Of a DNA stretch of 64,000 nt, positions 3,046-53,421 are shown piece after piece (within the stretch, counting starts at the first letter, position 1; every line of letters begins with the position of its first letter). The position numbers and the translations under genes are program-made. The notes under the pieces are model-generated. The model was given only the letters and a program-made list of their open reading frames with translations. It searched no databases and was not told where the DNA came from. This stretch comes from Protoeuglena noctilucae (taxonomy: Eukaryota). The stretch spans positions 1,240,001 to 1,304,000 of the forward strand of contig OY253673.1 in assembly GCA_958009085.1 (NCBI GenBank), given 5' to 3'.

Positions 3046-4284
3046 CGGGCTGCTAGGAACTGATGTAGGCCCTGCCCGGGCCGCACATGCGAGGAGACTG
3101 AGAGCTAGGTTGACAGAACTTTTGCCGGGTTGAATGGAATGTCCCTGCCCGAACGCGACGCATTACGTGAAAGACGGGGCGTGGGAACGCGACGGGCTAG
3201 TGCTTAGTGCTTGCCACTGGGCCCCTTGTCGCCCTTGTGGCCCTTGCCCTTGCGCTCCGTGGCGCCGCTGTTCTTCCCGCTCACGGGGTGCGCCTTGTCG
3301 TCAGACGCTCTGGGCACGCCAACCTTCTGCGGGTCAGAGCAGGGAGGTGTTGCTGAGGTGTCGCGCTGCATTGGTGTGCTGTGCTGTGCCGAGGGCCCTG
3401 CGCGCCACGCGCCTCGGCCTCGGGTTTCTTCCCCTCCGTGGCGTTGGGCACATTCGTGTGGGCCTTCTGGCTGTGGTCGCGCCCCTGCGGATGTCCCGAG
3501 GGGGTGCAGAAAGGCTTTGCAGTGCGACCTAGACCCAACCGGCGTTAGCGGTCGACAGTGCGTAAATCGGCACAGGGAGTGGTCCTGGCCATTGAAATGA
3601 TGAATTGATAGCGCAGGGCGGCCGATGCGAGGGGATACGGGGACAGGCGAGCAAACGCCGGTGACCAACCACCTCTACACCTCTACCCGGCCCTCTGGAA
3701 TCCGCTGCGCGCCCCCTCGCGGCAGCAAGCCGTGGATGCTGAACGAATGAAGATATTATTGAACTCCGAGGCTAAGGAAGGGAGCTCTAACGGCTGTGCG
3801 GCGCTCACCATGGTGCTGGCTTCAGTCACGAAAAGCACGTCGATGCAGCGAGTATCGGTCCAGAGATTGGCTCTGATGGACGCTTGTGGATGCAAAGAAT
3901 GGCGGCAGGGGAGGCAGCGGCCGCCCTTTTGAGGAACGCGGCTGTTTCACTGGCGCCACCGCAGCCCGGCACGCGGGTCCTGCAGCGCGACTACTACGCG
4001 CACTACGGCTCAGTCTCTTACTTTTTGAACGTGGGAATGCAAGATCTACTGTGTGCGGCGTCCGGGGCTGCCGCTGCATGCCGCCTGGGGCGCCGCGCAG
4101 TATTGCATGTCAACGGCTGCCAGACGCGTGGCCGTTGGATGCGGGGAAGGAAAACGAAGCGGCAGGCGACGACCCGAAGAGCTCCACTCCCGACCCGAAC
4201 GAGCCGTGCACCGATCCGGACTGCGAGGCCGCGCTGTTGAGCGGGTCCATCGACGCTGCGGTCGCAAGGCGAACAAGCAATGAG

Positions 4285-6049
4285 TCATCCTCCTCTCGCC
4301 GGCCCACCCAGCGCCGGCTTGGGAAGCTGCTGGACACCGCTCGCGTTCTCACCCGTGACGGGCAGGAGCGGCTGCCCCATGCCCTTCTTGCGTAGCTTCT
4401 CTGCGTACTTGACCACAGAGTACCACACGCCGCCCGCCATGTTCATCCCGATGCCCAGCTGCGGGGAACACGCATGCCGGATCGCATCACCAAGCGACCC
4501 CGATGCCAGCGCCCACACGGAATGCCCAGCTAGCGTTGGCCCCGTCTCCTCCGCCCGCACCATGCCATGCGCCTCCCCCAATCGGCCCACGCGGCGCTCA
4601 CCGCGTTGACCCAGTGGAACTGGACGTGGTTCATCCAAAAGAAGCCGAGGACGGTGGCGAAGACGCCCTTGAGCACCCCGACGACCGTGGTGGTGAGGGC
4701 CGAGTTGTACACGGTGCAGAAGAAGAGCGCGAAGTTGAGGAGGACCCCCAGGGCGCTGCAGAGGGCCACGAGGAGCGTGAAGAGGGGGTTCTGCGCCTGA
4801 GCGGCCGCGTACCGACCCCAGCACGTCCACGCCTCCCCCGTGACCAGCATGAGGATGCCCAGGAAGGGCAGCGAGAGAAGCGCGTTGTACTCCAGAAGCT
4901 CCGCTGTCGTGATGCCTTTCTCCGCCCCTGCGAATCGAACCCAAAACCGATGGTCGACTGGCCGGCAGATGACCACCTCCCCGCGTCTCGAATCCATTCT
5001 GGGAGTGCTGCGGCATGTCTTGCACAGAGCAGCGGCAGCGCAGCGCGTGGTCTCACCCGTGGTCTCGACGAGGAGGAGGTAGCTGGCCTGGAGCAGGCAC
5101 GAGAGGAGGGCGCAGACGTAGCCCCGGGCGTCGAAGGCAAGGTCTCCGCTGGCGGCCACCACGCACCCCGCCACTATCACGGTGACGGAGAGGGTGGTGC
5201 CGGTCGAGGGCGCCTTGCGGGTCATGAGGGCTTTGAGGACGAGGACGATGATGGGCGAGAGGCGCTTGAGGGCGTTGTACATGGGGATATTCAACGCCTG
5301 CAGGCCCGCCAGGGCGAACCCGGTGTTGGCCGTGTAGAGGAGGGTGACGGGGAGCAGGTGGCGGGCGCGGTCCCAGTCCATGCTCTTGATCTGCGGGCGC
5401 AGCAGGAGGCCCGCTCGCAAATCGGAGCAGCCAGGCACGCGTCGACCATGCCGGGCGCGCCGCGGCCCACCTGGACGACCCCGGCGAACTTCAGTGGCAA
5501 CAGGATGAGGACCGTGACAATCATTTGCAGAAACAGAAGTGTAGTGGGGAACGGAAACGCCAGGACGGTGGCCTTGTTCACGAAATTCTGCACGCACGCA
5601 GGCGGGATCCATCACGCAGAACCAGCGCCGCGTGGAAGCGCCCTGGGCGAGGCCGCGCCCAGCCGCTCGATTCTATGGACGCGCAGTTGTGCGACGGAGC
5701 AGGAATGAGTGCCGCCGCGATCCACCCATGCTGCCCACCATGACCACAGCGACCGTGCCATACAGCACGGCGGAAAAGGCCGAGAGCGCGGTTCCCCGAT
5801 GGATGGCGGGTCCCACGACGCCCTTCTCCAGACTCCACGCGTTGTCCTTCGAGTTGGTGTGGGAATGTGACCCCGCGGGGTCCAGCAAGGGCTGGCCATG
5901 CTGCGGGGAGGGCGAACTCGCTCGAGCGCGCCGCTGTCTCGCTGCGAATAGCGCGCATCATGTACGATGCAGCAATCCACCTTCCCGGCATATCCTCTCG
6001 GCGGCTTCCCCGTCCTATGGAAGCCGATGGTGAGGCTGTGGGCGGTCAT
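4285..6049 (-). CDS. Nucleotide-sugar transporter (SLC35D/UTr7-like, TPT/DMT superfamily)
   Basis: Multi-TM peptides AVLYGTVAVVM|NFVNKAT, ALNIPMYNALKRLSP, LLNFALFFCTVYNSALTTTVVGVLKG and GIGMNMAGGVWYSVVKY, joined by GT-AG introns. The start codon is uncertain. Confidence 0.85.
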
Positions 6050-6442
6050 CCAGCCTGGCTGCTCATGGGCGTGACAGTCCGGCCACACGTCCTAGCAGCA
6101 ATTGCTGACAGCGACGGCCAGACCGCTAGCGCCCGCCCTCCTAGTGCTCTTCGTCGAAAGTGGGAGCGCGCACAGCGATGCGAGCAAAGCGACCCAAGGG
6201 ACCCTCCTTTGCGCATAGGCCGGCAATGACTGTCACATGGACGCATTTGCAACGCAGGTGGATGGCCGGGGGCCCCTCAGCGCCTGTCCCTGGCCAGAGG
6301 TGCCAGAACTTGCGCTGACATGCCCGTTTCCAGCGCGAACATCCGTTCCGGAGGTGCGTCGCACTGCGCAACTTCCTCGTCCCCTGTCCTCACACGTCGG
6401 GGACTGCATGCTTTGCTTGATCTGCCTGGGCTGAGCCACGAA

Positions 6443-8744: not shown

Positions 8745-9064
8745 GGAGTTTGGTCTTGTCTTGGGACTGCCACTTGCTTGCCAGCATCAGCAATGCTGGC
8801 GTTACCCTATTGATTCCTTCACCGCTGCCCATTTCTTCTATTCAACACCAGCTATTTGGATCATCAATGGCCTGCCACTTTAAAGCTGAAACTCGACCTC
8901 GCCTCCCCTCGACGAATGAGCGATGGAGTCCGTCCATTGTGTCCCGGCGCTGGGCAGGCTGACCCGCTCCTCTCCCAACCTCTGCATGGGTGGGCAACGA
9001 CGGCAGTCGCGAGCACGATTGACCCAACGTGCGATGGCCAGCATTAAAAAAACGTAAGACGCAT

Positions 9065-10416: not shown

Positions 10417-11154
10417 CGCCCTCAAAACCGCTCGCTCGTCGTCGCTTGCGGCATCGTTCGCGGCGGAGCGTGCGAGGAACGGCCCAGAACCTAGCACGAC
10501 CAGCGTGGCGAAACCCGCCACGATGCGCTGCGAGGAAAGCTTACACCATCGTGTTGTAATATCCACAGAAATTGACAAAAGCCAACAGTGCCAATCACGC
10601 CACAGTTGCCACCTTTATCGCTCCCGGCTCGTCGCGGGACCCTGACAATGCCGCGTCATAGGTCAGAGCGCTCAGAGACCCTGCGCAGGGAACATCAGGC
10701 CTCGTGTGGCAGGTGGAAGCTTTATTCGTATGCGTTCTGCGCCGTGATGTGTCCCAATGCGGTGATGATCGCAGGAATCGCGCCTCGCACCTCCCATCCG
10801 TCATCTGCACATAAGTGCTCGGCGGGCCCGCCAACCCGCGCCCTGAAACGCAGAACTCGGGCGCTCCTGGCTGTTTTCGACAAGCAGGGCGAGCCTCCCT
10901 GGGCAGAGACGGCCAGCTGAGCTTCAAGATGGCGCTGCCCAGAGTGAGGAAGGCGGGATGGGAAAGACAAACGGCATTCACCACGTTCAATCAACCATGA
11001 GGGTGCTGAGGAAGTGAATGGGCTGGCGCAGGGAAATCTCCGGCCACCGAAAGGACACGTCAGGCACCAGCGTCAGGCTGCGCCAGCCCCGTGCGTGGAA
11101 GACATCGGCGCAATCGCTCGGCAGCTCCGCTCGGCGAGTCTCGGCAAGTCTCAT

Positions 11155-14755: not shown

Positions 14756-14911
14756 CCACGGGACACCGGGCCCAGGGTCGGAAGCCGTCCATGGCGTACG
14801 CTTTCGATGCCTCTCTCGATATGCGGCCGCCACTGCCGGCAGCGCGCTTGGAGCCTCGAGATAGTGTCAGATTTTTCTTCTCATTGTCTGACGGGGCCAT
14901 TCGCGTCCATT

Positions 14912-23989: not shown

Positions 23990-24321
23990 CACGATTGAAA
24001 CCGTTTTCTGGCCATCGAGGTCAATCCGCGTCGCCTTCGGCCGATTCCCCATCGGCAATGTGACACAGCGCCGCCCTCATTCCGATCTCCCGTATCCCAC
24101 CGCGCTGGCCCTTTCCGGCGTCCGTGCCGGTGCTCGCGGATCCCCCCAGCAGCGCAGGAAGCCGTCTCGACAGCGCCAGGTGCGTAGATATATCCAATTT
24201 GCGACACGGAGCTTGCGGCTACTGCTGGAACGGCGCCATCGGCGCTCAGCGTGTTCCGAGGGGGCTGCTGTTTCCGAGACTGGACCTTGCCGCCTACCCA
24301 GGACTGGCCGCTCAAATCCCG

Positions 24322-26458: not shown

Positions 26459-26801
26459 CGCGGCGGCAGTCCCACACCCCAAGTTCTCGAGCCAGCCGCA
26501 TGAAACGCCAGAGAGGCGCCAGACAGCCACGACGTCGGGGCAGAGCAGCCCACGTCCCAGCAGCGCCCACGTCACGGCCGGTCGTGCAGTTTCAAGCGAC
26601 ACGCTTGCCGCTCACCGATACTAGGCGCGCATGTCCCGATAGCCCCATTCCTAGCGCCTCGCGTGCACGGCCAGGCCAGTCGCGCGGCGCGCAACAAAGC
26701 TAGGACCCATCGGCGAACGCCGTAGCTCGCTTCATAAGCGAACAAGCAGTTAAAAAGCACAATAAGCAGCGCGCGGCCGACGCCACGGCACCGGACGCGC
26801 C

Positions 26802-28832
26802 TCATTCAAACCGCACGTGCCGGCGACGCCCGTGGCCGTCCCCCTCGCCATGCCGCCAGTCGTCTCTGTCACGCTTCCGCCCGCCGTGCCAGTCCTGCGC
26901 AGGCGCCTCGTGCCCGTACCCTCTCTGGCCTCTCTCATAGCCCCCCTGCTGCTTCTGCCAACCGTGGCCCCCATAGCCCCCGCCCCTGTTCTCGTAACCC
27001 CCCTGCTGCTGTTGCCAGTCCCCATAGCCCCCACCCCTGTGTTCATATCCCCCCTGCTGCTGTTGCCAGCCCCCGCCCATGTGTTCATACCCACCGTGGT
27101 GCTGCTGCCACCCCCCGTAGCCCCCACCCCGGTTTTGGTACCCCCCCTGTTGCTGTCGCCAGTTCCCATTACCCCCTCCTCGGTTCTCGTACCCCCCCTG
27201 ATGCCAGCCCTGCCCTCCCTGGTCCCTCTCGTACCCGTAGCCATTCCCATACTGACCTTGGGATACGAACTGTCCCGAATGCCCGCCTTGCGCGTGGGGA
27301 CAGTTCCTGGCGGTGTGGCCCACCGCGCCGCACTCGAAACACTGAATGCCCTGCTGCGCACCCCCGCAATCCCTCGCCATGTGCCCCACGCCCCCGCACT
27401 TGTAGCACGTGACCTCCGAGTCGTGTCCCCGGTGGTAATGCCCCCTCGCGTGAGACCTGAGACGCAGGGACAGGGGTTGATTTTGAGCCACCTTATCATG
27501 CCCCGCTATCGAGGCTCATGTCAAATGTTGCCTTTCCATAACCACTGCCCCACTCCCCATCAGCGCCCTCCCACTCGTCACCAGAGCTAATGCCAGGCAT
27601 TCCAAGGTCCAATCAAAAGTGTACTTTTTGTCTGGTTATTCACCTGGCGACCTCGGCCTGCTCCCTCTCCTGCTGCTCCCACTCCTGAGCCAGTCGCAGG
27701 CGGTAGGCGTGGGCCTCCCGGTAGCTCAGGCCCGGGCCGGCCAGGATGACGTCCGCGCCGCGGGGCCGCGGCTCGACGCAATCCGTGCCCCAGTGGCCGG
27801 ACTCGCCGCAGTTGAAGCACGAGGGGGCGGCGGGGGCAGGGTTGCGCCAGGGCGCGCAGCTGAGGTGGCCCTTGCGGCCGCAGACGATGCAGAAGACGCG
27901 GTCGAGGTCGGAGGGAGCGGGCGCGCGCTGGCAGCCGATGCCGGGGCGGAAGGCGTCCCCGGCACCGATGCTGCCGCACGTGGGGTCGCCGCACCGCATG
28001 CACGGGGCGGGGCCGTCCGGCTGGGGCGTGCGGCAGTCCCGCAGGACGTGGCCCCGCGCGCCGCACTTGAAACACACTGCGGAGATCGGGCGGGAGTTGC
28101 TTACATTCTCATTCCTGGCGCGGAGTGGCGGACGGCCCGGTACGGAGCGGGGCGGCATGCGCGGCCTGGAGCGCACCTTGGTTGGGGCACGCGTTCGCGT
28201 CGTGCCCTATCTCCGCGCACAAATGGCAGGGTCGGAGTTTCGGCGTCCCGCGGCACTCCCGGGCGATGTGGCCCTTCTCCCCGCAACGGTGGCACCGCGG
28301 CCCCGCCGAGGCCGCGAGCAGCACGTCCTCCGAGTCGAAGTAGCGCGGCACGCGAAGCGCAACGGCCAAGTCCTCATCGATCACCCGCGCCTCGTCGACC
28401 AGAATGACGCCGAGCGGCGCGGAGGCTGGACCGTTGCTCGCCGCACCTGCTCGAGAAAAAGCAGAGACAAAGCGGTGTCCCTGGGTTTCGGAACGCGTGC
28501 AGGGATGCATATAGGAAAGCACCGAGCTCGCTGTGGCTTGAGCGGCGGGGCGCGGTGGGCGCGGTGGGCGCCGGAAGGCGCGGCACACCGTCTGTCTTGA
28601 CTTTCGCCGCCTTGTCGCCCCCCGCCTCCGACACGTTGGCAAATGCGTTCCGGGAGGACTTCTTCTTCTTGTTCTTCTTCTTCGCGCGCTTCTTAATGCC
28701 ACCGTCCTCCCGAGGGCCCGCCGTCCTTGCAGCAGCCTTCCTCTCCACCAGCGTGCGCAGGGGATCCTCCTCCTCGCTGTCTACGTCTTCCTCGCGGTCG
28801 TCACCGCTGCCATCGCCACCACTTCCCCCCAT
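26802..28832 (-). CDS. CCHC zinc-knuckle RNA-binding protein (AIR1/2-ZCCHC7-like) with Gly/Gln/Tyr-rich tail
   Basis: An acidic then basic (KKKNKKKK) N-terminus, a PRYF motif and multiple CX2CX4HX4C knuckles (CHRCGEKGHIAREC, CFKCGARGHVLRDC, CFNCGESGHWGTDC, CYKCGGVGHMARDC, CFECGAVGHTARNC). Confidence 0.85.
26900..27240 (-). repeat. Coding tandem repeat of roughly 39-51 nt units encoding WQQQQGGYE(N/H)RGGGYG
   Basis: About 6 degenerate copies are visible in the last exon of the zinc-knuckle gene. Confidence 0.85.
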
Positions 28833-29100: not shown

Positions 29101-31412
29101 ATGAAGAAGAAGAAGGGCAAGGCGCAGAAGCGCAGCTTGGAGGGCCTCCCGGAGCGGCAGGGGAAGCGCCCAGACAAGGCGAGGGGCGTTTTTTGCGCGT
29201 CGATGCCTCTCATCACATCACAAGTAACCCAACGGTTCTGCGCCGCGGCCCCCAGATGCTCATATTCGTGGAATTTCCCCCCTCGCAGTACTTCTCCGGG
29301 AGCGAGGCCGCCCGCTACTCGACGAACGCGACAACCACTCGAATTCAGCGGGAGCTTGCGCGTCGCACTTACGAGCTGCTATGTCTGGCGCAGCCGTCCC
29401 TCGCGGGCGAGCGTGCGGTGGTGGCGGACCTCGGCTGCGGCGCGAGCCTGTGCGGGGCCCTGCTGGGCGACTGGCGGTGGGCGTGGCTCGGCGTCGACAT
29501 TAGCCGTGACATGCTCCAGCACGCCGGGCCCGACGCCGCGGGCCTCACCGCGTGCTGCGACATGGGCCAAGGCGTCCCGGTGCGACCCGCTAGCCCGCCA
29601 GCCCGCCCTCCCCTGCCCTTCACCCTGCACCACGCCCCCCGCGACCGCCGGCTCCCCCGCCTCCGCAGTTCCGAGCGGGGCTGCTCGACGCCGCCGTCAG
29701 CATCTCCTCCGTCCAGTGGGTGTGCCAGGCCTGCGACCGGTCCGAGTCTTTGGCACCTCTCCACCGCCTCTTCCACGACCTCTCCGCCTCGCTCCGTGCC
29801 GGCAGCCACGTCGTCTTTCAGGTGTACCTCGACGACGAGCGCTATTTCCGGTGGCTGCGCCGCGCCTGGCGCGCCCACGGCTTCGTGGGCGGGGCTTTCC
29901 TCGACTTTCCCCACAACAACGCCAGTCGCAAGGTGTTCCTGTGCCTGCTCCTGGAGCGTCCTTGCGAGGGTGCGGGGGCAGCGGGGGCCCAGCCGCCGTG
30001 CGAGGGGGCGGTGCAGGACGAGGCGGGGTGGCTGGCGAAGGGCGGGGCTGGCAGGAGTGGGGTGCCACCTGAGGGCGACGGGGCGCCAGCGGGGACGTCG
30101 GAGGAGCAGTCGGCAGCAGGGACGCTGCCCGGGGGCCGCGTCATGTCGCTGCCGGCGTGTCCGACAGCCTGGCCCCATCTGACGCCCTGCTGTGCGTCCT
30201 GGCACCTGTACTGGCACGCCTGGCACGCGCGCGAGGCAGCAGGAGGGCCGAGTTTAGGGGGTGAGGGAGGTTTGGCGGGGAGTGAGGTGGGGGGGGACGG
30301 TGCGGTGGCTGCAAGCGGGGAGGAGCAGGCGGGTGCAGGTGCAGGGGAGGTGGTAGGGCGGAGCGACGGGGCGGTGCTTTGTGCGGACGTGGTTCAGCCT
30401 TGGCTGCTGGGTAGGGAGGAGTCGGAATCGCTGCTGCCGGTGCGGCTGTTGACGGAGCACCGCAAGCTGTCCCAACGTCTGCTGAGGGTCTTTCGACGGG
30501 CTCTGGTGTCTAAGATGCCACCTGGTCCCGTGCATAATGGGCAGGGTTCGGCTGGGGAGGGCACTGGGTCGCAGGGCTTGGCAGCGGAGGCGGGGAGTGC
30601 GGGCGGCGAGGCGGGGGGTGCGACCGGGACAGGGCAGGGTGTTGATGGGGATTGCGTCAAGGGTGAGGCGGGGGCGTATACGTGGCTGGGTCGAGCGGAG
30701 GCATGGGGAGCGCCAGGGTGCGGGTGCCCGGTAGCCGTGTCCGTTCGTGACGCGACGGGGGCGGTCTTTGGGTCCGAGGGTCGTGCGGTTGCGGTGGGGG
30801 AGCAGGTGACCGGAGTGTCGCGTGGGGTGCTGGCGGGGCTGGGGCTGCGCGTGGGCCGAGTGACTGTAATCGCGGAGACGGGCGCGAGCGATGGGGATGC
30901 GGGGGAGGATGGCGATGCGGGGTCCCGAGAACACACGGCAAAGAAGCCCAAGCTCGCGTCCATGCATCTGCCCGAGCTCTCCGGGGTGCTCGCCGAGCGG
31001 GAGGGAGTGCAGGGCGTGCCAGTGCAGGCGCGGGTGCTGACGGGCGGAGAGATGAGCAAGACTCTCGTCATCACGGTGAGGGCATGTGTATGTACGCGGG
31101 TGCTGTTTGGGGTGGCCGTGGAGAACGTGCTCTGCGCAACCGCTTAAAGCAATACGTTTTGTTCGTCTATTCCACGCGCAGGTTGGGGCAGAGCCATTTT
31201 TGACATCGGCCCCGGGTCAGGGCGTGCGTGGTGCAAGTGACGCAGTGGCTGCAGCAACAAACGCGGTGCTGGGCAGGGTTGCTGCACTGGGGGCTGTCAG
31301 CGTGTCGGGGATCACGGTGGTGGCGGGACCTGACGGGCTGGCTGCCGGGCATGTGCTTATGTACATCCCCGGTGCATTGGACGCGGCAGATATCGCTCGG
31401 GCGGTGATTTGA
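29101..31412 (+). CDS. Bud23/WBSCR22-like SAM-dependent methyltransferase with long C-terminal extension
   Basis: PPSQYFSGSEAARY, ADLGCGASLCG, WLGVDISRDML, DMGQGVP|FRAGLLDAAVSISSVQWVC and GFVGGAFLDFPHNNASRKVFLCL align with the Bud23 motifs as recalled. The first intron has a GC donor (29179). Confidence 0.85.
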
Positions 31413-31579
31413 ATGAGAAAGAGAAACTGACAGGACTTTGCTCCTGTATGGTTCTGTTGTTGGGGAAGCCAGGATGGGCTAAGACGAGGCTCTCAGCGCA
31501 CACCTTCTCAGTGAGATAGGTGGGCGTGTAAGTCTTCTGCTGCCGTCCGTCTTAAGAGTTGAAGGGGTGACAGTTACTC

Positions 31580-33791: not shown

Positions 33792-35743
33792 ATGTCGGCG
33801 TTGAGAGCGGGGCCGCATTGCTGCGCGGGTCGCCCGGCCACCTCCCGGCGTTGGGGGAGTGCCTGTGCGACCGCCGCTCGATCTGCGAGCTCGCGGTACC
33901 TTGCGCCCCCCCCGCGCGCGACTTCCAGGACGGCGCGATGGCAGCCACCCGAAATGACAGAGGAGCTTCGTAAGGAGAAGAGCGCGGGCAGGGAGACGTA
34001 CGCGCCGGACACATACGACGACCTTGTGAACGGTGACCAGCCGCGCCCCGTGCAGCCACCCGGGCAACGAGCTCGCCGGACGCCAGCGCGGCGTGCTTGA
34101 CGCGAGCGGTTTAGCGTCGGGCCTGCTCATCGTCCGCAGATGCGGTCTTGGCGGTGGAGTTCGCGATGAGGGACGGCGACAAGCGTCTGGAGGTCGAGTT
34201 CCCCGCCGGTGACCCTATCTGATGTCTGTACACATGTGCGATGCGTGTATTAGCTTATGCTTATTACGCACACGCGTTCTTTCTGCGCAGTGAACGTGGA
34301 CGGGTACAAGGGGGCTTCCGACACGTTTATCGACTCCAATGTGCAGCTGGCCATCTCGGCCGCCCGCAAGCTCATCGCGAGGTCCGGTGGGAAGGTTCAC
34401 GTGGTCCTCCCGGACGAGGGGGAGCTAAAGCGGTCTTCCAGGCAAGAGGCGTGACTGCAGACCGCTGCGCAGGGACTGCCGGACCCCATTCCGCTCAGCA
34501 CCCCGTCCACCTGCACGCCTCTCTCGCAGGATGTTTACCGCGGCGCTGGAGCAGATGGAGGGCGCCGTGACGCTCGGCTGTCTGTCTGGGCAGAAAGAGG
34601 TCCTTTCCTCTGGGTGGCTCGGCAACTATATCAAGTTCGGCACTCCAGAGCCCCAGGTGCGTGCGGGCGTGCGCGAATGGCCAGCCAGGGACAGTTGGGA
34701 CAGTTGCAGGACCCACATGCTCTGAGACGTACCCTAGCCCATGGGCTGCACGACGACCAGTGGGGCAACCAGTGGTACTGGCTGTGGCTGGCCCCAAAGG
34801 CCCCACCTTTGCCACTCGTCGCCGCAGTTCAACGACGAGAACCGAGAAGCCGACGTCTTTTTGGTGGTCAACTGCTCGACGTCCGAGCTGTCGGCGGTGG
34901 AGCGTTTCACGGAGAAGATCGCGGGCGACAAGGCGGTGGTGCTGTGGAACCTGGAGCTCGACACCCTCCGGGCCGACCTGGGACTCCTGGGCTTCCCTCC
35001 CAAGGACCTCCACTTCCGGTTCCTCTCCCAGTTCCGCCCCGTGGTGTGTGGCTAGTACCCCAGGGACCTGGGAAAACTCCAGGCATGCTCCCTTCGGTGC
35101 TCTCACTTTGGGTGTCGCTCTCCCAAAGCACCTCACGCAGCGTCTAACGCAGGCACTGCCATGCGACGCGTATCCATGTCTCTTACTTGTCCCATGCCCC
35201 TCACTTGTACCCCCGCTCTGCCTTTCCTCTTACACTCACCCCCCACCACCCACTCCCCTGCAGTTCTACATCCGCCAGCGCGACTACTCCAAGACGGTCA
35301 ACGTGGCTCCCTTCGTGATCAACTATTCCGGGGCGCTGTTCCGTGAATACCCCGGGCCCTGGCAGGTCATGCTGCGGCAGGACGGGGGGGTCTACGCGTG
35401 CGTGGCGGAGTCAGACAAGAGGTGAAGCATGCAGTGGCGTGGCCTGTCGGATGCAGCACGCTGCGTAGCAGCGGAATGACGGGACCCGCCGGGTTGACGG
35501 GCCGCGTGAGGGCACCAGCGGCGATGGCCAACAGCGGCGGGGTCTGACACGAGCGCATGCTGCGACTGCGTCTGCGTGTGCAGGTACACGCTCCAGGAGG
35601 TGAAGGAAGAGCTGATGGCTGCCATGGGTCTGAACACGGAGGCGGAAGGGACGCCCGAGTACGCCATCCGGCAGGGATTCAAGCGGTCGACGTGGTGGGA
35701 GGAGAACGAGGTGGACGAGATGTCCGACGTATGGAGGCGCTGA
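33792..35743 (+). CDS. LPA3: LOW PSII ACCUMULATION 3-like (DUF1995) chloroplast protein
   Basis: A transit-peptide-like N-terminus, then [52 protein letters not shown] and [17 protein letters not shown]. Seven exons. Confidence 0.92.
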
Positions 35744-35889
35744 GGAGCAAAGGGCGCGCTTGTTATTGAATGAAGAAATGCTTGGCCAGGGGTTGTGGGA
35801 ATAAATCCAAGGAAAGGGGCAGTGAAGGTTGCGCTGTGTGTGTCGTGGGTGCCGCCATGCAGCTGCAGAGGTGCACTCATGCGTGCGCC

Positions 35890-36881: not shown

Positions 36882-37067
36882 GGCTCGAGCTCGTCAAGCT
36901 CGATTACAACGACGGGAGATCGAGGGAGGACGAGGTTCGTGCTACAAAGCCAATCGACGAGGGGCGCGTCAGCAGCGCCTGCTTCGGCCGATATCACGCG
37001 CCCTTAATGTACAGACGTGGTGAAGTCAGGTCGCAAGCTTGTGCTGCAGGTGCAAGATTCAACGCCA

Positions 37068-39456: not shown

Positions 39457-40065
39457 GGCGAGCGCGCTGGTACGCGGCGCTAAACGCCCGCTTTGCAAGT
39501 CCACCTCGTTGACAATCTATCTCCGAGTTACTGCGAGCGATGCGATACGTCAGTCGAGCCCTGGCGGCCTCAGCACGCGCCCAGCACAGTGCGCGAGCAC
39601 AGTGCGCGACTGCCGTGCCGCGTCTCCATCAGCTGTCCTCACGTGCGACTGCGCAGAATGCTGAATCTCCAACAGCGATGACCGCGGGCGGCTTGGCCCG
39701 TCTCGCTTCCAGACCAGCGCACGGTGAGCGCGCAGAATGCGTTTGCAGGGGCTGTCGGCGTCCGTCGTCAAGCGGGGCAGCTGCGCGCGACTAAAGTGCC
39801 TGCTGTTATGCACGCTTTCGCGATCCCTGGATGAAATGAGGGGGGCTGTGCGGGGAGTACCCTCCCTTGCTTGCATGTCTCGATACCTACAGGCCTAGGA
39901 GCCAACAGAGGCCGGCTGCGGCGGCAGGGAGATCAGAAGAGAGCCTCAGTGATGAAAGCAAAGCATACATGGCACATGTATGCTTCAACGGAAAGCCTGC
40001 GGCCTCTCTGCGTGGACATCAGCAGCGCCAAGTGCGTGACACACGACCCCCACATGCAACCCTTC

Positions 40066-41411: not shown

Positions 41412-42175
41412 GACACGCCTCAGCGCTAGCACTGCTCCCCCTCGGTCAAACAACGCCAGCTATGTTGCACGACGCGACCCTCGGGCTGCTCGAAGCGAAG
41501 GCCTCAAACCCGTTGCGGCAATCGCACCAATGCGGCCAGAAATGCGGACTGCGACAGGGACATTGGGGCGACGGCGACGGCGAGGGGCAAACATGGTTCA
41601 CGCGGCGGCGCGTCAGAGGCCTGCGCTATTTTGAACCTGGCGCCGTGGCACATCACCCCGACACTTTTGAGCTTTTCCCGACCATCGATACGAGCGCTGC
41701 AGAGGCTTTTTATCCACCGGTTCGGCGGCCCCGAAGTTATCCACAGGTGAGCGCCGGCCGGGCAGGCGTCTGCAGCTCCCAGTTTATCATGCTGAGACTT
41801 TAGTACCGGGATTCGACTCGGGCGTCCTTCGTTTCTCCCCCTCGCTGAAAAGGGTGGCTGGGACGAGCCCAACGGGCTTGCCGCCCCGATGAGGGAGATC
41901 TGGATGCCTCTCCCGCGAAAGAGATTGCTTGTCCTGCGACTCCTCGCCTGCCCCATCCGCGCGGCTCTGGGCATCGATGTGATTGGGCAGGGAGCGCGTG
42001 CAGACCCCAGGACTGCATCGCGGGCTCTGGCGGGGATCCCGACCCTGCCGGGCGGCCTGTTATTGACTGTTCTTTCCATCGCGCTGGCACACTTCCCTGC
42101 CCCTGCTGCCGACCGGCCCCAAAGCCGCCCAGCATTGCACTGGACGCTGTGCCGCGGCCGCCCGCAGACGTCGCG

Positions 42176-44092: not shown

Positions 44093-44543
44093 GCGGCGCT
44101 CCGTGCGAGGTGTCCGAGAGCGCTCTCGTTCGAATCGCGATTGAATGCGCTCCACGATGGCCAACGATGGTCCTTGTCATCACCTGGGGAGGTCACTGGC
44201 ACCCCGGCAGCCCCTTTTGCTGCTGCTGAACCCCCAGCCTCTCTTGAGACAAAACGGATGTTGCGATGCGGAGAGCCTTGCGGACGATGCTGTCGAGGAC
44301 CTGGGCGACGGAGCAGGTGGGGGCGGAGGACATTTGCAGCCGATTTGCAGCCGTCGCGCCGTCGATGTGCCCGTGGATGGCGCGAGCGACACCATGCGAG
44401 TTTTAGAGCGTCGGTGACGTGTCGATGTGGCCTCTGGAGGGCTCCGAGCGTCCCAACAACCACCCTTCCTTGCTGCCTCCCTTCCTCGCTCCCCGCCATT
44501 TGCGCGGGACGTCAGCTGACCCGGACCTCGCTCATGCCTGCAG

Positions 44544-45132
44544 CCCGGCACGCTGAGGGGCGGGCCCGCCCCGGTCGTGCCCACCCCAGTCGCCTCACGC
44601 GTAGCGGTGCTGCTCCGCGCCCAGCCCGAAAGGCAGTTCGGCAGGTGGACTGCGTGACAGCGCAGCTGGGCCTCTCACCGCTGCGTCACTGCCTCCCAGA
44701 CACCTCACATCCTGCCTCACGCCCCATTGCTGCCGCAGCGACGAGAAGCCCGTGTCGCAGCGCATCAAGCAGTCGGCCAAGCACGCCAAGGACGTCGTCT
44801 TCGACAAGGCGGAGGAGGCGATGGACGCTCTGCGCGGCAAGACGAAGGACGTCCGGGACGCCTCCAAGGAGGCGCTCGACAGCGCGCGTGAGCGGGCCCA
44901 CGACGCCACGGAGCGCACCAAGTCCGCCTTAAGCGAGGCGACCGAGTCTGCCAAAGGCGTCGCGAAGGACGCGGCGGGGTTAGCCGAGGCCAACTACGAG
45001 GGGGCCAAGGAGGGTGCGCAGGACCTGGCCATGGAGACGCGCGACAAGGCCACGCGCGTGAGCAAGAACGTCAAGGACAAGGTCAAGGAGGCGGCCAAGG
45101 CGCCGTCCGAGCGCGTCGAGGACGAGATGTGA
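44544..45132 (+). CDS. LEA (group 3/LEA_4-like) hydrophilic protein, copy 1 (5' exon unresolved)
   Basis: A/K/E/D/T-rich amphipathic 11-mer-like repeats (ATESAKGVAKD) after an intron at 44645-44738. The preceding exon reads ..SRVAVLLRAQPERQFG. Confidence 0.75.
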
Positions 45133-45426
45133 AGGGTTTCGGTAGAACCGGGGATAGAAGGGGTCCTAGGCCTGGCTGGAGCGGGGTCGCAGGGGTGTGC
45201 GCCGATTCATTGCCCCCCTCGGGCGCAGCCAGGGTCGTCTTGCCCGCCCTGCCTTTCCCGGCGCTTGAAGTGTGCGCGAGCCATCATTCAAACGCTGGCA
45301 GCAGCTGAATAGTCGCCAACGCGCTCGTCGTCAGACATAGGTCTAACCGGCGTCTGACGTCCGACAGGCTTTTCCAGCCCTTTCCCGCCTCGCCGTCGCC
45401 CAGAAGCATCGTATCGAGCCCCAACG

Positions 45427-46350
45427 ATGCGTGTTACGGCCTTCACAGCAGCTGTCAAGGTGCGTCGGCCCCGGCGCGCCTGCCCCGAGATGCCCGGCCT
45501 CGCTCACCGTCGATCCTGCTCAGACGCGTCATAGACGGCGCGCAGTACGCTCGTAGTTGCCGATTGTGTCCGCGGGAGTCGCGTCGCGGCGTCCTGAGCC
45601 GCGGGATGGCGCGGACGGGCCAGGGTGCCGTCCCAACGGTCGGGCGCCGGGAGCCGACGATCCAGGCCCTCGCGACGCCCGCAGGTCCCCGTTCTTCCCG
45701 TGAACAGGCGAAGGACGGTCATCATGGCGTCCGGCGGCGGTCAGGGCTCCGGGTGAGCGCGCCGCGGCGACCGGGGCCTCCAGCACTGCCTGGCCAGCCT
45801 CGGCCGGCGCCCGAGCCCCCGCCGGCGCGCCCCGGGCCTCGGAGTGCCTCGTGGGCTTTGATGGGCCGCCAAGGGCCCTCGACGAGCTTGTTTCGGCTCG
45901 CTCGAGCACGGTCGGGACTCGCACACCTCGCGCCCCCCTCCCGTCGCCCGCAGCCCCGAGCAGCACAAGTCGATGACGGAGCGTGCCTCCGAGGCCATGA
46001 AGCAGGCCAAGGACACGGTCGTTGGCAAGGCGGGGGACGCGGTGCACGCGGCGCAGGAGAAGGCGCAGCACGCGCGTGAGGCCGTGACCGGCAAGTCGTC
46101 CGAGATGGCCGAGGGAGCCAAGGAGCGCGCGCACGGTGCCAAGGAGGCCGTGGCGGGCAAAACGGAGGAGATGAAGGAGTCGGCCAAGGGCGCCACCGAG
46201 TCCGCCAAGGGCAAGGCCCAGGAGGCCACGGAGAGCGCCAAGGGCACTGCCCAGCATGCGACCGAGAGCGCGAAGGGCAAGGCTCACGAGACCCAGCAGG
46301 GCGCGCAGCACATGGGCCAGCAGGCGCATGAGAAGATGCGCGGGGAGTGA
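45427..46350 (+). CDS. LEA (group 3/LEA_4-like) protein, copy 2, with putative plastid transit peptide
   Basis: MRVTAFTAAVK|VPVLPVNRRRTVIMAS..|..AKDTVVGKAGDA, followed by 11-mer repeats ATESAKGKAQE / ATESAKGTAQH / ATESAKGKAHE. Confidence 0.85.
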
Positions 46351-46468
46351 GGCGTCGCCCTCGCCCGAGATGCCATGAGCGGGCACTGTGCGCCCATGCC
46401 AGCCGAGCACGCGCTGCGCCCTCCGTTGAACAAGCGGTGGGCTAATGCTTAGCTGCTAAGCGAGCGCG

Positions 46469-47979
46469 TCACGCTAGCACAGGCCCCGGCGCCGCGCCGG
46501 GCAGGTACCGTGCCCACGCCTCCACGACCTCCCGGTCTCCGTACCAGGCCTTGCCAGCCGCCCGGGCTGCCTGCGGGTAGGGCGTCGGGGCGCATGCCAG
46601 CAGGCGGAGGCTCTCCTGAGCTAGCTGGCTCGAGCGATGCTCGCCTGCGGGGTGTGCAGCACGCCGTTGAGCTGGGCCAGCTCGGCGCCCGGCACGCACG
46701 CGATGCTGACTGGGCACACGCCGTCTCCGTCGCACTCCCCCGTGCCACAGTTCGCGCGGTACGATGCGTGCCACAACCATCCGTCGTATGGCTGTCCACC
46801 ACGGAACCGCGTCAGCGCCTCGCTCAAAGCCAGAGGCTGGCCTCGGAAGGAGGTGCCAGCGACGCAGGTCATGCGGACGCGTGGGAAGCTCGCGGCGCTG
46901 GGGTAGAAGTGACTGGCAAATCGCACGCTGCGAGGGTGGAAGCGGCGCCTGAGTCGGGCGCAGCGCAGGGAACAGCGCAGCACAGCGCGCTCTCAGGCGC
47001 CAAGGCTCGCCTCGACCCCTGCACGTCCGCTGGCAGCGTGAGTGGCTCCATGGGCCGCCGCTCGGGCACCCTGCCGAAGGGGTACTGCTCGGTGGTGCCG
47101 TGCGGGGTGCCCAGCGTGACGAGCGACACGACGTGAGGGTCGGGCCCCGCTGCCACGCCGTAGGACCGTCCGGCGTAGGAAGCCGACCCCATCAAGATCC
47201 TGCAGCACCACGTGGGCGCAGGCGCTCTCGTGCATTCGGTCTGCTGTGCATGGTGCGCGTCATCTGCTGCTCCACTGCCCATGACAACCCAGGGCGTCTC
47301 ACCGGGCCAGCCAGCCGCCCGCCGAGTGCCCCACGAGCGCCAGGGGCCCACTGCTCGCCCTGGCCTGCAGCACGGTCTGGTAGGCGCGCTCCAGGTAAAA
47401 GGAGAAGTCGCCTCCCAGCAGCGTCCCCGCCCAGTCACGTGCCCGCAGGGGTACGACGTATACCTCGTGGCCCATGTCCTCCAGGTGGGCGGCCATGTCA
47501 TCGTAGAGATCGGCCCCGAACAGGAAGCCAGGCAGGATCACGCAGGGCGTCGGCCTCAAGGCCGCATGGGGGACGGAAGCAGAGTCGACAGATGAAGAAT
47601 CCCCCAGAGACTTGCCTCGCGGCAAGTGACGTTTCCGCTGAAGAAGTTGCCATCGCGCACCTCGGTCTTGCCGAAGCGAGGCGAGCCCTGGTGCTACATC
47701 CAAAGTGCGGCGGGGGAAGCAGCAGGGCGTCGCGGCGAGGCCGTCCATGAAGCCCGGGCTCTGCTGCACCCTTCTCGCGGCAGCTGCCGCCTGGGCACGA
47801 CCTGCTGGCGAGCTGGCGGATGAGCATTCCTTGGATCTGACGTGCGCAGGTGCCAGGATTGTCTTGTCCGCCCACAACCGCGATTCTCGGGGTCCACCAG
47901 CTGCCTTTCCCCCCTCCTGAGGATCCTGTCCTAGCGTCCCGAGGCCCGGGCTGGTCCAGCGCAGGCAGGTCCTCATCAT
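46469..47979 (-). CDS. PGAP1-like alpha/beta hydrolase (lipase/esterase)
   Basis: VILPGF, the nucleophile elbow LVGHSAGGWLAR, SLVTLGTPH, GDGVCPV (Asp), GVLHTP (His) and WYG. Confidence 0.88.
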
Positions 47980-48225
47980 GTACAGGTGCGGAGCGCATGC
48001 GTGGCGAGGGGACCGTTCCGAGCGCCATCCCGTGCGATGTAAACGCGTCCCGATCACTAGGGCCCTTCCGCACCCTCGGCGGCCTCCCGGCGCGGGAGCA
48101 GCACGCTGTCGGGACGCCGTGGGGACGCGGGGCGACTTGCCGGCATGCTCTGTGCCTCATTTTGCGCTTACATCGTGCGCGTGTCGGACCACCTTCGCGC
48201 GAAGCCCCTCCTGGGAGACGTATCG

Positions 48226-51200
48226 ATGCCCGGGGGGTGCCTTGGGCATGAACTGCTGATTTTGGCCGGCCGGGGGCGTGAGGCGCCTCTCCCTGGATCC
48301 CCGTTCCATCTTTATTGGCACGCAGGGGTCCTGGACGCTTCCAGCAGCCCGAGAATGCCCTCAAGAGGGCGGACGAGCTGGTTGCAGTGGGCCAACCCCA
48401 GGCGGCTCTGGAGACCCTGCACGAGGTGGTCACCTCCAGGCGCTTCCGGGTATGGCAACAGTCCTACCAGAAGATCATGATGCGGCACGTGGACCTGTGC
48501 GTCGAGCTGAAGAAAGGCGAGGCGCAGGGCGCTCCCAACCCGTCGGCTGCCCGCCATCCCGCGCCGCTGGGGGCATCTCTTGCCGGTTCCGTCTGCTGAC
48601 GCGGCTCTTTCCATCTCAAACCGCGATCCGGCCGGATTGCGTGCGTGCCCGCTGCTGCCCCGCGCCCGGGAGGCCCTGCAGGACGGCCGTGGCCGTCTCT
48701 GGCCCCGGGCCGACGCCTCGCGATCCCGCCGCGGCCTTGCAGGGCGCAGGGCGAAGGAGGGACTCATGAGCTACCGGAACTCGTGTCAAAACGAGAACGT
48801 CAAGTCCCTGGAGGAGGTCATAAAGCACCTGCTCGATGAGTCGTCCCGCCGCGCGGAGGAGGCGCAGGCTACGGTCCAGGTGGGGCCACGGGACGGTGCA
48901 CCCGAGGAGCAACCTGGAGCTCGGCCCGCGCGCGGGCCTTACCCTCCCCGGGTCGCGGCCGGGGCGGTGGGGGCGATGACGATTCAGTGCATCACCAAAT
49001 TCTGAAGCCGACGCCTGATCCGCTGAGGCCCCGATGACATCACAACACCAAAACGACTTCTTCTTCCACCGAGCCCACCACCGCCCCGCCTGGTCCCCCG
49101 TGCTCCCGCTGCGCCCAGCACCTTGCTGCGCCCGTCGCACCCACCCGCCCTCGCCCACTATGCCGCAGGCCTCGCTCGAGTCGATCGACGACCTCGACGT
49201 GGACGCGACGCCCGAGGACATCATGTTGTCGTACGTCACCCAGGAGGAGAGCAAGGACCGCACGGACCGTGAGCTCGTGGCCCCCTGGTTCAAGTTCCTC
49301 TGGGAGTCGTACCGGTCCATGCTCGAAATCCTCCGCAACAACGCCAAGCTCGAGGCGCTCTACGCCATGGTCGCCACCCGCGCCCTGCGCTTCTGCCTCC
49401 AGTACCAGCGCTCCACGGAGTTCCGCCGGCTCTGCGACATCCTCCGGTGCGTGGCCAGCCCGGGCGCTCGCGCCTGCCGACGCAACCTGCCTGTTTCCAC
49501 TTCACGCGGCCTCGCCGGGCCGGCCTCGCCTGGGTTCGCTGCCGGCGTCGCCGCTGATGTGATCGGCTTGCGACCAGGGGTGCCACGTGACGGTGACCCG
49601 CCCTCCACCCGGCTCTGTCCCCGCAGCAACCACCTGAAGAACCTCGACCTGCCCCAGCGCCGCAACATGCGCCAGGAGATGCCCGACCTGACCAAGCCCG
49701 ACACGTCGCGCCGCTACCTCGAGACGCGGTTCGAGCAGTTGCGCGTGGCGGCCGAGCTCGGCATGTGGCAGGAGGCCTTCCGTTCCATCGAGGACATCTT
49801 CAACCTCATCGCCATCTCCCAGAAGTCGGGCGGCAAGGTCCCCACCCCCGCCCTCATGGCCACGTACTATCTGCGCATGACGCAGATCTTCCGCATGTCC
49901 GGCTCCATGCTCTACCTCGGCTTCGCCTGGTTCAAGCTCTACGTCCTCTTCAACATGCACCTCAAGACCCTCGCCCAGGAGGAGCTCTCGACCATGGTGC
50001 GCCTGCCTGGGGTTTCACCACGAGAGCAAGCCTATGCGTGGCTGCGGGGCTCACACGCACGCGTGCCGCGGATAGCCGACGCGTAGGGCGGGCGCGCAGG
50101 CGACCCCGTTTACGTCAAATACAGACCCCCGCGTTCGCCCGCAGTCATCCGCGGTGGTCCTGGCCGCCATCTCCATCCTGCCGTTCGACCGTCAGCTCGA
50201 GACGCGTGCCACGGACCCCCAGCTGGACCAGGACCGCATGGTGCGCATGGCCAACCTCCTCGGTGTGCCGCACGAGAAGCACGACGTCGCCAAGGCCCTC
50301 AGCCGGGAAGCCCTGGTGAGCACGCGCGGCTGGGGTGGGCACGCCACAGCTTGGCGACTCTCGGGGTGCTCTGCAAGGGCCAACGCAGGGGCTGCAGCGG
50401 CATGGAATGTGTACATGCGCACGGTCTCGCTTGTCCCCCAACGTCTCGCCCGTTTCTCAGTCACTCTGATGACTTGATGATGACTGACAGTCACCCTGTC
50501 CACCGTGTCGCCTTTGGTCGCAGATGCGCGAGATTCGCGCCAAGGGGCTCCTCCAGGTGGTGCCCAAGGAGGTGAAGGAGATCTTCGACCTCATCGAGGG
50601 CACGTTCGACCCCCTGGGCAAGTGCAAGGTGAGATGTGGAACAAGGTCACATGGCAGTGGGAAGCACACGAGGGGCCTCTCAATGACGATGCTTATCGTT
50701 CCTTTGGCTGTCTGAATGGGTCCCGCTAGGCCCGCAACGAGTGGACAACCGCGATCGCTAGATAGTAACCGAGAGATGCCCCCCGGATTGCGTCCCGTGT
50801 TCGCATGTACGCTTCCATGCGCATGTGCCCGATGACACCCTTCTGGGTCACTTCGGCGCCCGCAGAGGCTCGCGCCGCTTCTGGACAAGCTCGAGTCGCT
50901 GGACCGCCCCATGGACCTGGGCCACAAGATGCAGGTCGACGGGGCAGCACTCGCCAACTTCCGCAAGCCGCTGATGGAGACGGCCGTGCTCAGCACCCTC
51001 CTGCAGCTCAAGCAGGTCTACTCCTCCATGCGCATCGAGGCCTTCAAGGAGCTCGTGCCCTTCATGTCCTTCCGGTGAGACCGGGAGGAGCGAGGCGGGG
51101 GTGTGCGGGCGCGATGGGGTGCGTGGTGCGTGCGACATCCCGGCGTGAAAGGCACAAACCAAGCCCCGTCTCCTGCCTTTGCAGGGAGGTGGAACACGTG

Positions 51201-52952
51201 ATCGTGGACGCGCACCGCTGCGGCTACATCCAGTGCCGCATCGACCACAAGGAGGGCATCGTGACGTTCGGCCCGGCCGTGCACACGGTGGAGGAGGTGG
51301 CGGGCGTCATGTCCGGCCTGGCCGAGCACCTCCACAAGGCGCTGCTGATGGCGGGCGTGGTGCCGGACCAGGCGCGGCTCGAGGCGCACCGGGACGACGC
51401 CGTGGCGCGCTACGTCAAGGCGGCCGCGGAGCTGAACCACGCGGCGGGCGTGCGCAAGCGCGAGATGGACCGACGCAAGGAAGCCCAGGAGCTGGCGCTG
51501 GCGCAGCAGATGCGGCAGGAGCGGGAGGCGCGGGAGATGGAGCGCATGGAGCGCGAGCGGGAGGAGATGCGGCGCCAGGAGGAGGAGCGGCTGAGGCGCG
51601 AGCGCGAGCGGCTGCTGGCAGAGCAGGAGGCGCGCGAGCAGGAGGAGGCCCGGCAGCTGGCGCTGCAGCGGGGCCGGACGGTGGCGCTGGGGGAGAAGCT
51701 GGACAAGAACGAGCTGCTCCGCGAGGAGATGGAGGAGCGGATGGAGAAACACAAGCGCCTGCTCGAGAAGCTGCACAAGCTGGAGAGGACCATGGACCAC
51801 GTCGAGAGGGCGCGCCGGGAGGTGGAGGCGCCCAAGATCGAGGCCTTCTACGCGGCGAGGCGCGAGGAGGACAAGGTCTTTTTCGAGGAGGACCAGCGCA
51901 AGTTCCTCGAGGCGCACCGCGCCGCGTGGGAGCGCGACCTGACGGAGAAGGAGCGGCTGGCGCGGGCCGTGGGGCCCGCCGAGGCCTTCCGCGCCGACGT
52001 GATGGCGGCGCGCGAGGCCGAGTTCGAGGAGCTGCAGGCCGAGCGGGAGGAGAGGGTAGCGGAGGAGCGGGCGCGGCGCCGCGAGGAGGTGCTGCTCGCG
52101 CGGAAGAAGGCCTACGTGCAGCGGCTGCGGCGCGAGGAGGAGGAGCGGGTGCAGAAGGAGGAGGAGGAGGCCAGGAGGAGGCACGAGGAGGAGCTGCGGG
52201 CGCGCGGCGTGGGAGGAGCTGCGGCGCCCGCCACGGGGCCCGGGGCCGAGTGGCAGCAGGTCGGCGCGCGGCCCGCCGACGGGGCCGCGGCGGCCGGCAA
52301 GTTCGTCCCGTCCCGCCGCACGGCGGCTGCTCCGCCCATGGGAGGCGACCGCCCGGACGGTGAGGGCGCGGCAAGCGGTGGCTGCCTTGGGGGCTGGGAA
52401 CTGGCTTGGACTGTGGGTGCATCGGTCCCGTGTGTCTGCGCGGAGCTCCGTCCTTTGGCGCTCGTGCGACGCGTGTGCACCTCTCTGCATTGCCACGCAG
52501 GCGACGACTGGCGGCGGAGGCCCATGGACGACCCCCGGGCGCGGACGGGGCCCACCGAGGAGCGGCCGAGGCTCAACCTGGTCCCGCGGACCGTGGAGCG
52601 CCCCGCAGAGGACGCCGCGCGGGCTCCTGGGGCGGCGCGGGGCACGGGGGAGGCGGCGCCTGCGGGGGGCCCGGTGTCGGTCCCTGTGGGTTCGGGCGCA
52701 CCCAAGTTCGTGCCGCCCGTCATGCGTGGGGCCGGGTCCGGCGCGCCGGCGACCACCGAGGGCCCGCCGCGCCTGGCGTTTGTCCCGCCTGGCCGTCGCG
52801 AGGGGGCAGCTCCGGCCCCGGGTCCGGCCGCCGCGGGGCCCAAGCCCGCGGATGGGCCGAAGACCGAGCCCGCGCGCCCGGCGCCGGCAGCCGGTGCGCC
52901 TGCCTCTGGCCCTAGCAAATTCGTCCCCCCCCACCTGCGCAACAAGCAGTAG
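48226..52952 (+). CDS. EIF3A: Eukaryotic translation initiation factor 3 subunit A
   Basis: [66 protein letters not shown], a PCI domain, a long coiled coil and [12 protein letters not shown]. About 11 exons. Confidence 0.97.
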
Positions 52953-53421
52953 TCCCTGCCAAGGCTGTCACCCGACCGTGCTCCAGCTTGTGGGGCCGCG
53001 GCATCCACAAGAGTTGAAGGTGGTCACCCTCGCATCCACGCTCCCAGCGCAATGGCGGAGAGCGGGCTTTCTCTGAAACGCCAGAACGTGGCCACTCCCG
53101 TTAACGTGCGCGATGTGTTTCGCGCAGCAGATGTAGGCGGCATCCGCGCCGTCGTCTCAGGATCGTGGCTTTTGCGCCCCGTCCGTCGGATTTCTCACGC
53201 GCCCGTCGACGTCGAGGCCCCCGGCTGCTTCGCACAGCGCTGACGCGCATATTCTTTTCCGCCGTTCCCATCTTTAGAGGCCCCGCGTGTCCCGGGGGCG
53301 CGTAGGGCTGGGAGCTGGCCTGTGCGATCTCGATCGCCGCGCGCGGTGCGCCGTCTTCAGTTCTGACGGTCCTGAGGGTGTCTTCGCGGCCACCGACCCG
53401 GGGCCCGGGCGCGTCCTCCCG

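Follow-up and report, generated by a model that had tools for sequence, protein, structure and literature searches.

Which RNA word directs the formation of mRNA 3' ends in this alga? The question is raised by the window, a 64,000-nucleotide (nt) stretch of the Protoeuglena noctilucae genome (G000:C6:1240001-1304000; 26.3 Mb in 27 contigs), in which the pentamer TTGAA recurs on the sense strand shortly after many stop codons. An initial annotation of these letters had proposed that UUGAA replaces the chlorophyte polyadenylation signal UGUAA, implying altered specificity of the CPSF or CFIm proteins. The TTGAA pattern is a real feature, far above chance. We conclude, with a probability of about 0.88, that UUGAA is the near-upstream poly(A) signal of roughly half of this alga's genes, in place of UGUAA, since it is enriched after stops, avoided in sense introns and found 10–20 nt before the ends of the RNAs and of the one long interspersed nuclear element (LINE) family examined.

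Enrichment of TTGAA after stop codons

Gene ends were predicted with a hidden Markov model (HMM) of our own, which started from five genes of the window and was then self-trained on the window and on 80 stretches of 10 kb; it recovers the joints seen in RNA for SHMT and LEA1 and for most of eIF3a. Genome-wide counts were taken only from stretches outside the window (900 kb of the same genome), TTGAA overlapping a TGA stop was excluded, and the 183 stops recovered under two parameter sets were treated as robust. The 238 predicted 3' flanks, each 300 nt long, contain TTGAA 109 times (1.55/kb), and 223 kb of introns contain it 40 times (0.18/kb), so that the equal frequency in introns by which the initial annotation would have been refuted is not seen. 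Among all 1,024 pentamers it ranks first in these flanks, and it does so with a maximal-order Markov model, with a first-order one and with introns as the reference (p ~1e-35). TGTAA is flat (0.33/kb in 3' flanks versus 0.30/kb in introns), and AATAAA is absent from all 238 predicted flanks.

Within +1 to +250 of the robust stops, TTGAA is present after 82 of 183, compared with 25.6 ± 4.7 in 100 dinucleotide shuffles (maximum 36), while TGTAA follows 15 of 183 (13.6 ± 3.5 when shuffled). Ten held-out stretches unused in training gave TTGAA after 13 of 20 stops, TGTAA after one and AATAAA after none, bringing the combined carriers of TTGAA to 95 of 203 genes. The ratio of observed to expected counts reaches 2.77 downstream of stops and is close to 1 between divergent genes (1.05) and on the antisense strand of introns (1.02), but falls to 0.46 on the sense strand of introns. 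The bases flanking TTGAA are nearly flat, indicating that the element is a pentamer.

Genes in the remaining half likely use weaker variants, for which UAGAA and GUGAA are leads only: TAGAA has 16 sites in 95 genes without TTGAA (4.3-fold; 1 of 20 in the held-out set), and GTGAA in tandem flanks stands at 13 versus 4 (p = 0.05). We rejected a reading of the word as a UGAAA variant, as only 30 of 84 sites continue with A and TGAAA is unenriched in genes lacking TTGAA (10 sites, 1.17-fold).

TTGAA precedes RNA ends and the poly(A) tails of a LINE

RNA from four runs of one study, in which about half of the region's words are present, was placed on positions 33401-53400, a 20-kb stretch; its details come from the items listed, namely 32 of 812 contig pieces and 24 of 217 loose ends. 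Three genes with spliced contigs carry a TTGAA near the RNA end:

44141..44145, plus strand: TTGAA of SHMT, 49 nt past the stop at 44092; RNA contig ends at 44150-44159
45265..45269, plus strand: TTGAA of LEA1, 133 nt past the stop at 45132; RNA ends at 45277-45283 in 4 of 4 runs, with no read-through
53014..53018, plus strand: TTGAA of eIF3a, 62 nt past the stop at 52952; RNA ends at 53029, 53031 and 53033, and at 53000 in one run

By run, the spliced contigs end at 44159, 44150, 44150 and 44150 for SHMT (two listed, two obtained from joint side lengths), at 45283, 45278, 45280 and 45277 for LEA1, and at 53000, 53029, 53031 and 53033 for eIF3a. Eleven of these 12 contigs thus end 10–20 nt from the first T of the motif (19, 10, 10 and 10 nt; 19, 14, 16 and 13 nt; 16, 18 and 20 nt), the farthest ends being 19, 19 and 20 nt away. 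For a motif placed randomly in the 250 nt after each stop, the probability of three coincidences of this kind is about 1e-4. The contigs explain the binned depth in seven of eight run-bins, leaving almost no room for read-through; the eighth has a predicted depth of 26.7 versus 30.2, an excess that may derive from the first exon of LEA1. Depth-based 3' ends for the genes with stops at 40066 and 37068 were too coarse and were set aside.

Poly(A) tails fixed in the genome gave a second view of 3' ends. A genome search for TTGAA followed by 8–20 nt and A10 returned nine places (25 overlapping matches), against four for the reversed control. Eight of the nine are the 3' termini of a single element, spread over eight contigs; the spacer measures 11 nt in seven copies and 8 nt in one:

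G000 C1:782.9k, C2, C3, C5, C7, C8, C9 and C11: LINE copies L124-L131

The copies are 5'-truncated, bear tails of A10–16 and, in two cases, are bounded by 12–13 bp target-site duplications. The longest encodes a reverse transcriptase, the reverse transcriptase frames are frameshifted, and we take the element to be of L1 type from its motifs. LINE elements are RNA polymerase II transcripts tailed by the host, so these ends preserve a poly(A) site that lies 16 nt beyond the first T; as the eight copies form one family, they constitute one observation. The equivalent search with TGTAA returned three places (on C23, C26 and C27). The positional link to RNA 3' ends, whose absence the initial annotation would have taken as refutation, is therefore found in 11 of 12 contigs of three genes and in the genomic tails of one LINE family. 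By extension from established CPSF biology, UUGAA would be bound on the nascent RNA, CPSF73 would cleave about 11–15 nt downstream of the pentamer, and the tail would then be added by poly(A) polymerase.

Strand dependence and alternative explanations

Equal frequency on both strands, another refuting condition of the initial annotation, is likewise not seen in tandem gene pairs, where 44 robust genes have TTGAA 25 times in sense and 11 times in antisense (p = 0.03), and 29 of the 32 tandem gaps bearing any TTGAA bear a single copy. Convergent gaps (median 266 nt) have the word on both strands, 56 and 51 times in 83 gaps, and divergent gaps have about 0.4/kb. Short introns show the opposite bias, with 17 sense versus 37 antisense sites, 2 versus 8 in the held-out set and 19 versus 45 when pooled (p = 0.0016).

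The alternative that survives best, although we regard it as improbable, is that TTGAA/TTCAA is a double-stranded DNA element, such as a site for a terminator or roadblock factor with the near-palindrome TTSAA, that fixes RNA polymerase II ends, or that UUGAA and UUCAA are both RNA signals. TTCAA differs by a single base from TTGAA, whose reverse complement it also is; 11 of 44 genes have it in their tandem flanks, more than background (p = 0.002), and 8 of these 11 have no sense word (Fisher p = 0.08). In a related alga the 96-nt gap between CPSF30 and its convergent gene (L113:356-451) contains a single TTGAA/TTCAA site. The antisense excess may come from hidden genes, antisense transcripts or a weak UUCAA variant. 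Four results speak against such an element: introns avoid the sense TTGAA alone (0.46 versus 1.02), the two orientations are independent in convergent gaps (both in 23 of 83, 23.8 expected), the RNA of an esterase-like gene appears to end before its TTCAA, and the matches of TTCAA plus poly(A) consist of a 5S rRNA/tRNA array on C24, one 6-nt spacer and the AT-rich C27. We therefore discarded these TTCAA matches as support for a UUCAA variant. The array (L133, G000:C24:4100-7000, on a 15,866-nt contig) is built of tandem units of about 2.3–3.1 kb; every unit comprises a 5S rRNA gene, a tRNA gene in the opposite orientation, a minisatellite and a run of A/T about 70 nt long.

It is very improbable that UUGAA is instead a 3' untranslated region (UTR) element for an RNA-binding protein governing stability or translation, with cleavage set otherwise; sense-strand 3' enrichment in about half of genes is compatible with such a role, but the role needs neither a fixed distance of 10–20 nt to the end, as seen in three genes and the LINE, nor avoidance in introns. 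A compositional artefact, in which AT-richer flanks (61.7% GC versus 68.8% in coding sequence) and frequent TGA stops (132 of 183) yield TTGAA while the alga uses UGUAA or a diffuse signal, is scarcely credible: introns of similar GC (63.9%) have the word eight times more rarely, shuffles give 25.6 stops with the word against 82 observed, the sites overlapping stops (5 of 183) were excluded, TGTAA stays at background, and the spacing to RNA and LINE ends is left unaccounted for.

Several observations weigh against UUGAA as the poly(A) signal. Our HMM, the source of the gene ends, at times fuses or splits genes, and about half of the genes (95 of 183) are without TTGAA. A looser tandem set (83) has 35 sense and 23 antisense sites, the antisense excess in tandem flanks has been described above, and the raw count over all 3' flanks is only 109 versus 79, a weak contrast, given that a convergent gene lies opposite 134 of 183 robust ends. 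There is no fixed YA peak 3' of the motif in 84 contexts, and the depletion of TTGAA from coding sequence (0.74) is non-specific, CTGAA and GTGAA being equally low. With respect to RNA, contig ends do not fix cleavage sites, all four runs belong to one study, no poly(A) run occurs among the 24 of 217 loose ends listed, and one eIF3a contig stops 13 nt before TTGAA. The esterase-like mRNA (stop 46469, minus strand) seems, by record-length arithmetic on predicted exons, to end at about 46442-46448 with no TTGAA upstream; this apparent end coincides with the predicted end of the convergent LEA2 mRNA. Finally, a nuclear TGTAA followed by 12 nt and A13 lies near a contig end at C23:421.8k (L132). 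Two more TGTAA and one TTGAA are found within 110 nt upstream of this site, which may be a retrocopy that used UGUAA.

Comparison with known poly(A) signals

Seven of eight chlorophytes have UGUAA as their leading word, with a peak near -17 (PMC1868727). For Chlamydomonas, the peak of UGUAAC lies at -18, counted to its first U (PMC4360255), and 58% of sites have UGUAA (PMC4701671). UUGAA resembles the UGUAA element known from Chlamydomonas, Ostreococcus and further chlorophytes (PMC1868727, PMC4701671, PMC6413133) in being a pentamer ending in AA that lies 10–20 nt before the 3' end in about half of the genes, AAUAAA playing no part. Set against the position and frequency of that element (about 17–20 nt, 30–60% of genes), the farthest ends of the three genes are at 19, 19 and 20 nt, the LINE end is at 16 nt, and 95 of 203 genes carry the word. 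The sequence, by contrast, is neither UGUAA nor a single-base variant: positions 2 and 3 are swapped (two mismatches), the word contains no UGUA, and UGUAA itself is at background here. UUGAA thus likely acts like the chlorophyte element but with a different sequence.

UUGAA shares its position class with AAUAAA, which is read by zinc fingers (ZF) 2 and 3 of CPSF30 together with WDR33 (PMC9745836, PMC12421377), and it would retain A4-A5 if bound in the same register, V67, K69, F84 and F112 of CPSF30 being kept. It differs in having UUG at positions 1–3 and no preference at position 6, so that there is no U3-A6 Hoogsteen pair of the kind that Phe43 and Phe153 of human WDR33 sandwich, and this alga's CPSF30 has 136 residues and no YTH domain. 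The Giardia signal WGURAA (PMC11529991) is likewise a lineage-specific derived signal with matching substitutions in the CPSF30 fingers, and a GAA ending is tolerated; unlike the flatly flanked pentamer found here, it is a hexamer, has G as its second base and depends strongly on the downstream base.

A literature search returned no report of UUGAA or TTGAA as a poly(A) signal; subscription journals lay outside its scope, and the supplement of PMC1868727 may list UUGAA among minor words. The word does not occur in those parts of the main text of PMC13130582, PMC11529991, PMC4360255 and PMC6413133 that were available, nor, in the available part of the last, among the single-base UGUAA variants listed for Chlamydomonas or Ostreococcus. 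It occurs three times in the supplement of PMC6413133, where the two rows displayed belong to flat far-upstream tables of diatoms. The preprint on Pedinophyceae sp. YPF-701 does not mention polyadenylation.

Candidate readers of UUGAA

The reader of chlorophyte UGUAA is stated, in PMC4701671 and PMC13130582, to be open between CPSF30 and the UGUA-binder CFIm25. For UUGAA, we slightly favor the CPSF30-WDR33 module, which would bind it in the register of AAUAA, because the two words align at A4-A5 and UUGAA contains no UGUA. One CPSF30 (CPSF4) was found among 18 CCCH matches (G000:C1:581.4-582.1 kb; L095:1166-1894; P0137). Its tandem CCCH fingers are homologous to human ZF2-ZF4 (best PDB match CPSF4, E 8e-19, in agreement with Pfam), it groups with named chlorophyte CPSF30 proteins, and it comprises three fingers in 136 residues, with a spliced 136-residue copy in public contigs. 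A PF15663 profile search and a search of a phage collection with the CPSF30 query gave no match.

This CPSF30 keeps V67, K69, F84 and F112 and carries the changes H70Y, L75S, K77V, K78L, Y97D and F98E. The position-2 pocket of the human mPSF is formed by His70, Leu75 and Lys77 (PMC9745836), which here are Tyr, Ser and Val, and ZF2 is the plastic part of CPSF30 (PMC12421377). In the proposed arrangement, ZF2 would take U1-U2 via a remodelled position-2 pocket (H70Y, L75S, K77V and K78L, with V67, K69 and F84 kept), and ZF3 would take A4-A5. Counting against a causal role for some of these changes, H70Y and loss of the ZF3 aromatic (F98) are common to Volvox, Gonium, Micractinium and Apatococcus and so do not track UUGAA. 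A hydrophobic residue 78 with an acidic residue 97 was found, among 22 proteins compared, beyond this alga only in two environmental proteins and Pedinophyceae sp. YPF-701. The four proteins group in a tree (94/88, not starred, on a long branch), and these residues and this grouping suggest that the alga is likely a core chlorophyte near the pedinophytes.

A re-specified CFIm25 is the other candidate reader and in our view a rather doubtful one. CFIm25 (NUDT21), identified by its NUDIX_2 domain, has a single locus at G000:C5:560.8-561.7 kb; relative to the human chain it shows E55N, L99D, F103Q, F104I and a one-residue gap and keeps R63, so that the UGUA pocket is altered. We presume that Glu55 and Phe104 contribute to this pocket. 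According to PMC2425470 and PMC8139829, Phe103 stacks a base and Arg63 is required for RNA binding. Among the 15 homologs listed, which include no named chlorophyte, the residue directly before the K/W-LPGG motif is Phe in 10 and Tyr in 2.

The initial annotation pointed to the RNA-contact residues of these proteins, and CFIm25 and CPSF30 are indeed both substituted, but Volvox and other core chlorophytes have some of the same CPSF30 changes. An altered CPSF/CFIm specificity is accordingly plausible as far as comparison of the proteins can indicate, with circumstantial support. Both genes carry TTGAA in their own 3' flanks, at +33 (CFIm25) and +85 (CPSF30). It is possible, at somewhat less than even odds, that a whole pedinophyte-like lineage exchanged UGUAA for UUGAA and rewired its readers along with the signal, CFIm25 losing the UGUA pocket and CPSF30 acquiring group-specific finger changes at K78 (hydrophobic), Y97 (acidic) and L75 (polar).

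TTGAA sites and genes of the window

Window gene ends were taken from our HMM and hand curation. All 13 TTGAA sites cited in the initial annotation are present, those on the minus strand being low-end coordinates of TTCAA, and most fall within its limit of about 220 nt, with the site at 26591 lying beyond it. Where it had estimated about half the genes, a sense TTGAA falls within 220 nt in 14 of 23 gene ends; within 300 nt, TGTAA occurs in two (31527, plus strand; 36908, minus strand) rather than the one it reported, and AATAAA, which it had missed, in one (35800, 57 nt past the LPA3 stop). The earlier survey also overlooked 35682 (minus strand, ICMT-like gene) and the second sites 10927 and 26809. 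Over the whole window, counts on the plus and minus strands are 25 and 25 for TTGAA, 16 and 6 for TGTAA, and 2 and 2 for AATAAA. The further sites are:

3130..3134, plus strand: TTGAA of NDUFS1, 85 nt past the stop at 3045
8841..8845, minus strand: TTGAA 35 nt past the predicted stop at 8880
10986..10990, minus strand: TTGAA 165 nt past the predicted stop at 11155; second copy at 10923-10927
23995..23999, plus strand: TTGAA 6 nt past the predicted stop at 23989
26805..26809, minus strand: TTGAA of a CCHC zinc-finger gene, 60 nt past the predicted stop at 26869
26591..26595, minus strand: second TTGAA of the same gene, 274 nt past that stop; the site cited in the initial annotation
31409..31413, plus strand: TTGAA of the Bud23-like gene that shares letters with its TGA stop; left out of counts
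31559..31563, plus strand: TTGAA of the Bud23-like gene, 147 nt past the stop; TGTAA at 31527
35766..35770, plus strand: TTGAA of LPA3, 23 nt past the stop at 35743; AATAAA at 35800; a contig joins both convergent spliced mRNAs
35678..35682, minus strand: TTGAA of the ICMT-like gene, 208 nt past the stop at 35890; within the last LPA3 exon
37058..37062, minus strand: TTGAA 6 nt past the predicted stop at 37068
39984..39988, minus strand: TTGAA 78 nt past the predicted stop at 40066
46426..46430, plus strand: TTGAA of LEA2, 76 nt past the stop at 46350; scant RNA coverage of the gene

Pfam confirms NDUFS1 and SHMT, gives weak, below-cut-off matches for eIF3a and the LEA genes, and yields no match for those LPA3 and esterase exons that were compared; the labels eIF3a, LEA, LPA3, esterase-like and those of the other window genes are presumed identities. 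At 35582-35987 a single RNA contig joins the spliced LPA3 (plus strand) and convergent ICMT-like (minus strand) mRNAs, which, together with the minus-strand TTGAA at 35682, fits overlapping 3' UTRs of the two genes. Three further plus-strand TTGAA (3592, 3759 and 4025) lie between NDUFS1 and a convergent transporter gene and could be distal NDUFS1 sites or belong to an unannotated gene. GC-AG introns are very common: GC donors are found in 3 of 14 true introns among the 15 RNA joints listed (43267, 43488 and 48517 in the window) and in 364 of 1832 HMM introns, the model having been seeded with 3 of 19.

Relatives

Eleven loci of relatives were annotated with the gene model trained on this genome. 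In the two closest relatives (L113 and L115), TTGAA follows 3 of 11 predicted stops, a small number, and TGTAA follows one. Loci L116-L123, with Volvox-like CPSF30 fingers, show no clear pattern, and some of their gene calls are false.

Implications

A chlorophyte whose signal is UUGAA, without UGUA, and whose two candidate readers are both changed makes the reader question testable by signal and protein swaps with Chlamydomonas. If the rewiring of the whole lineage is true, it would offer a natural experiment for identifying the protein that recognizes the chlorophyte signal. The finding would mean that a core poly(A) signal can shift by two positions inside one phylum, and it has a practical bearing on gene annotation and terminator design in this lineage.

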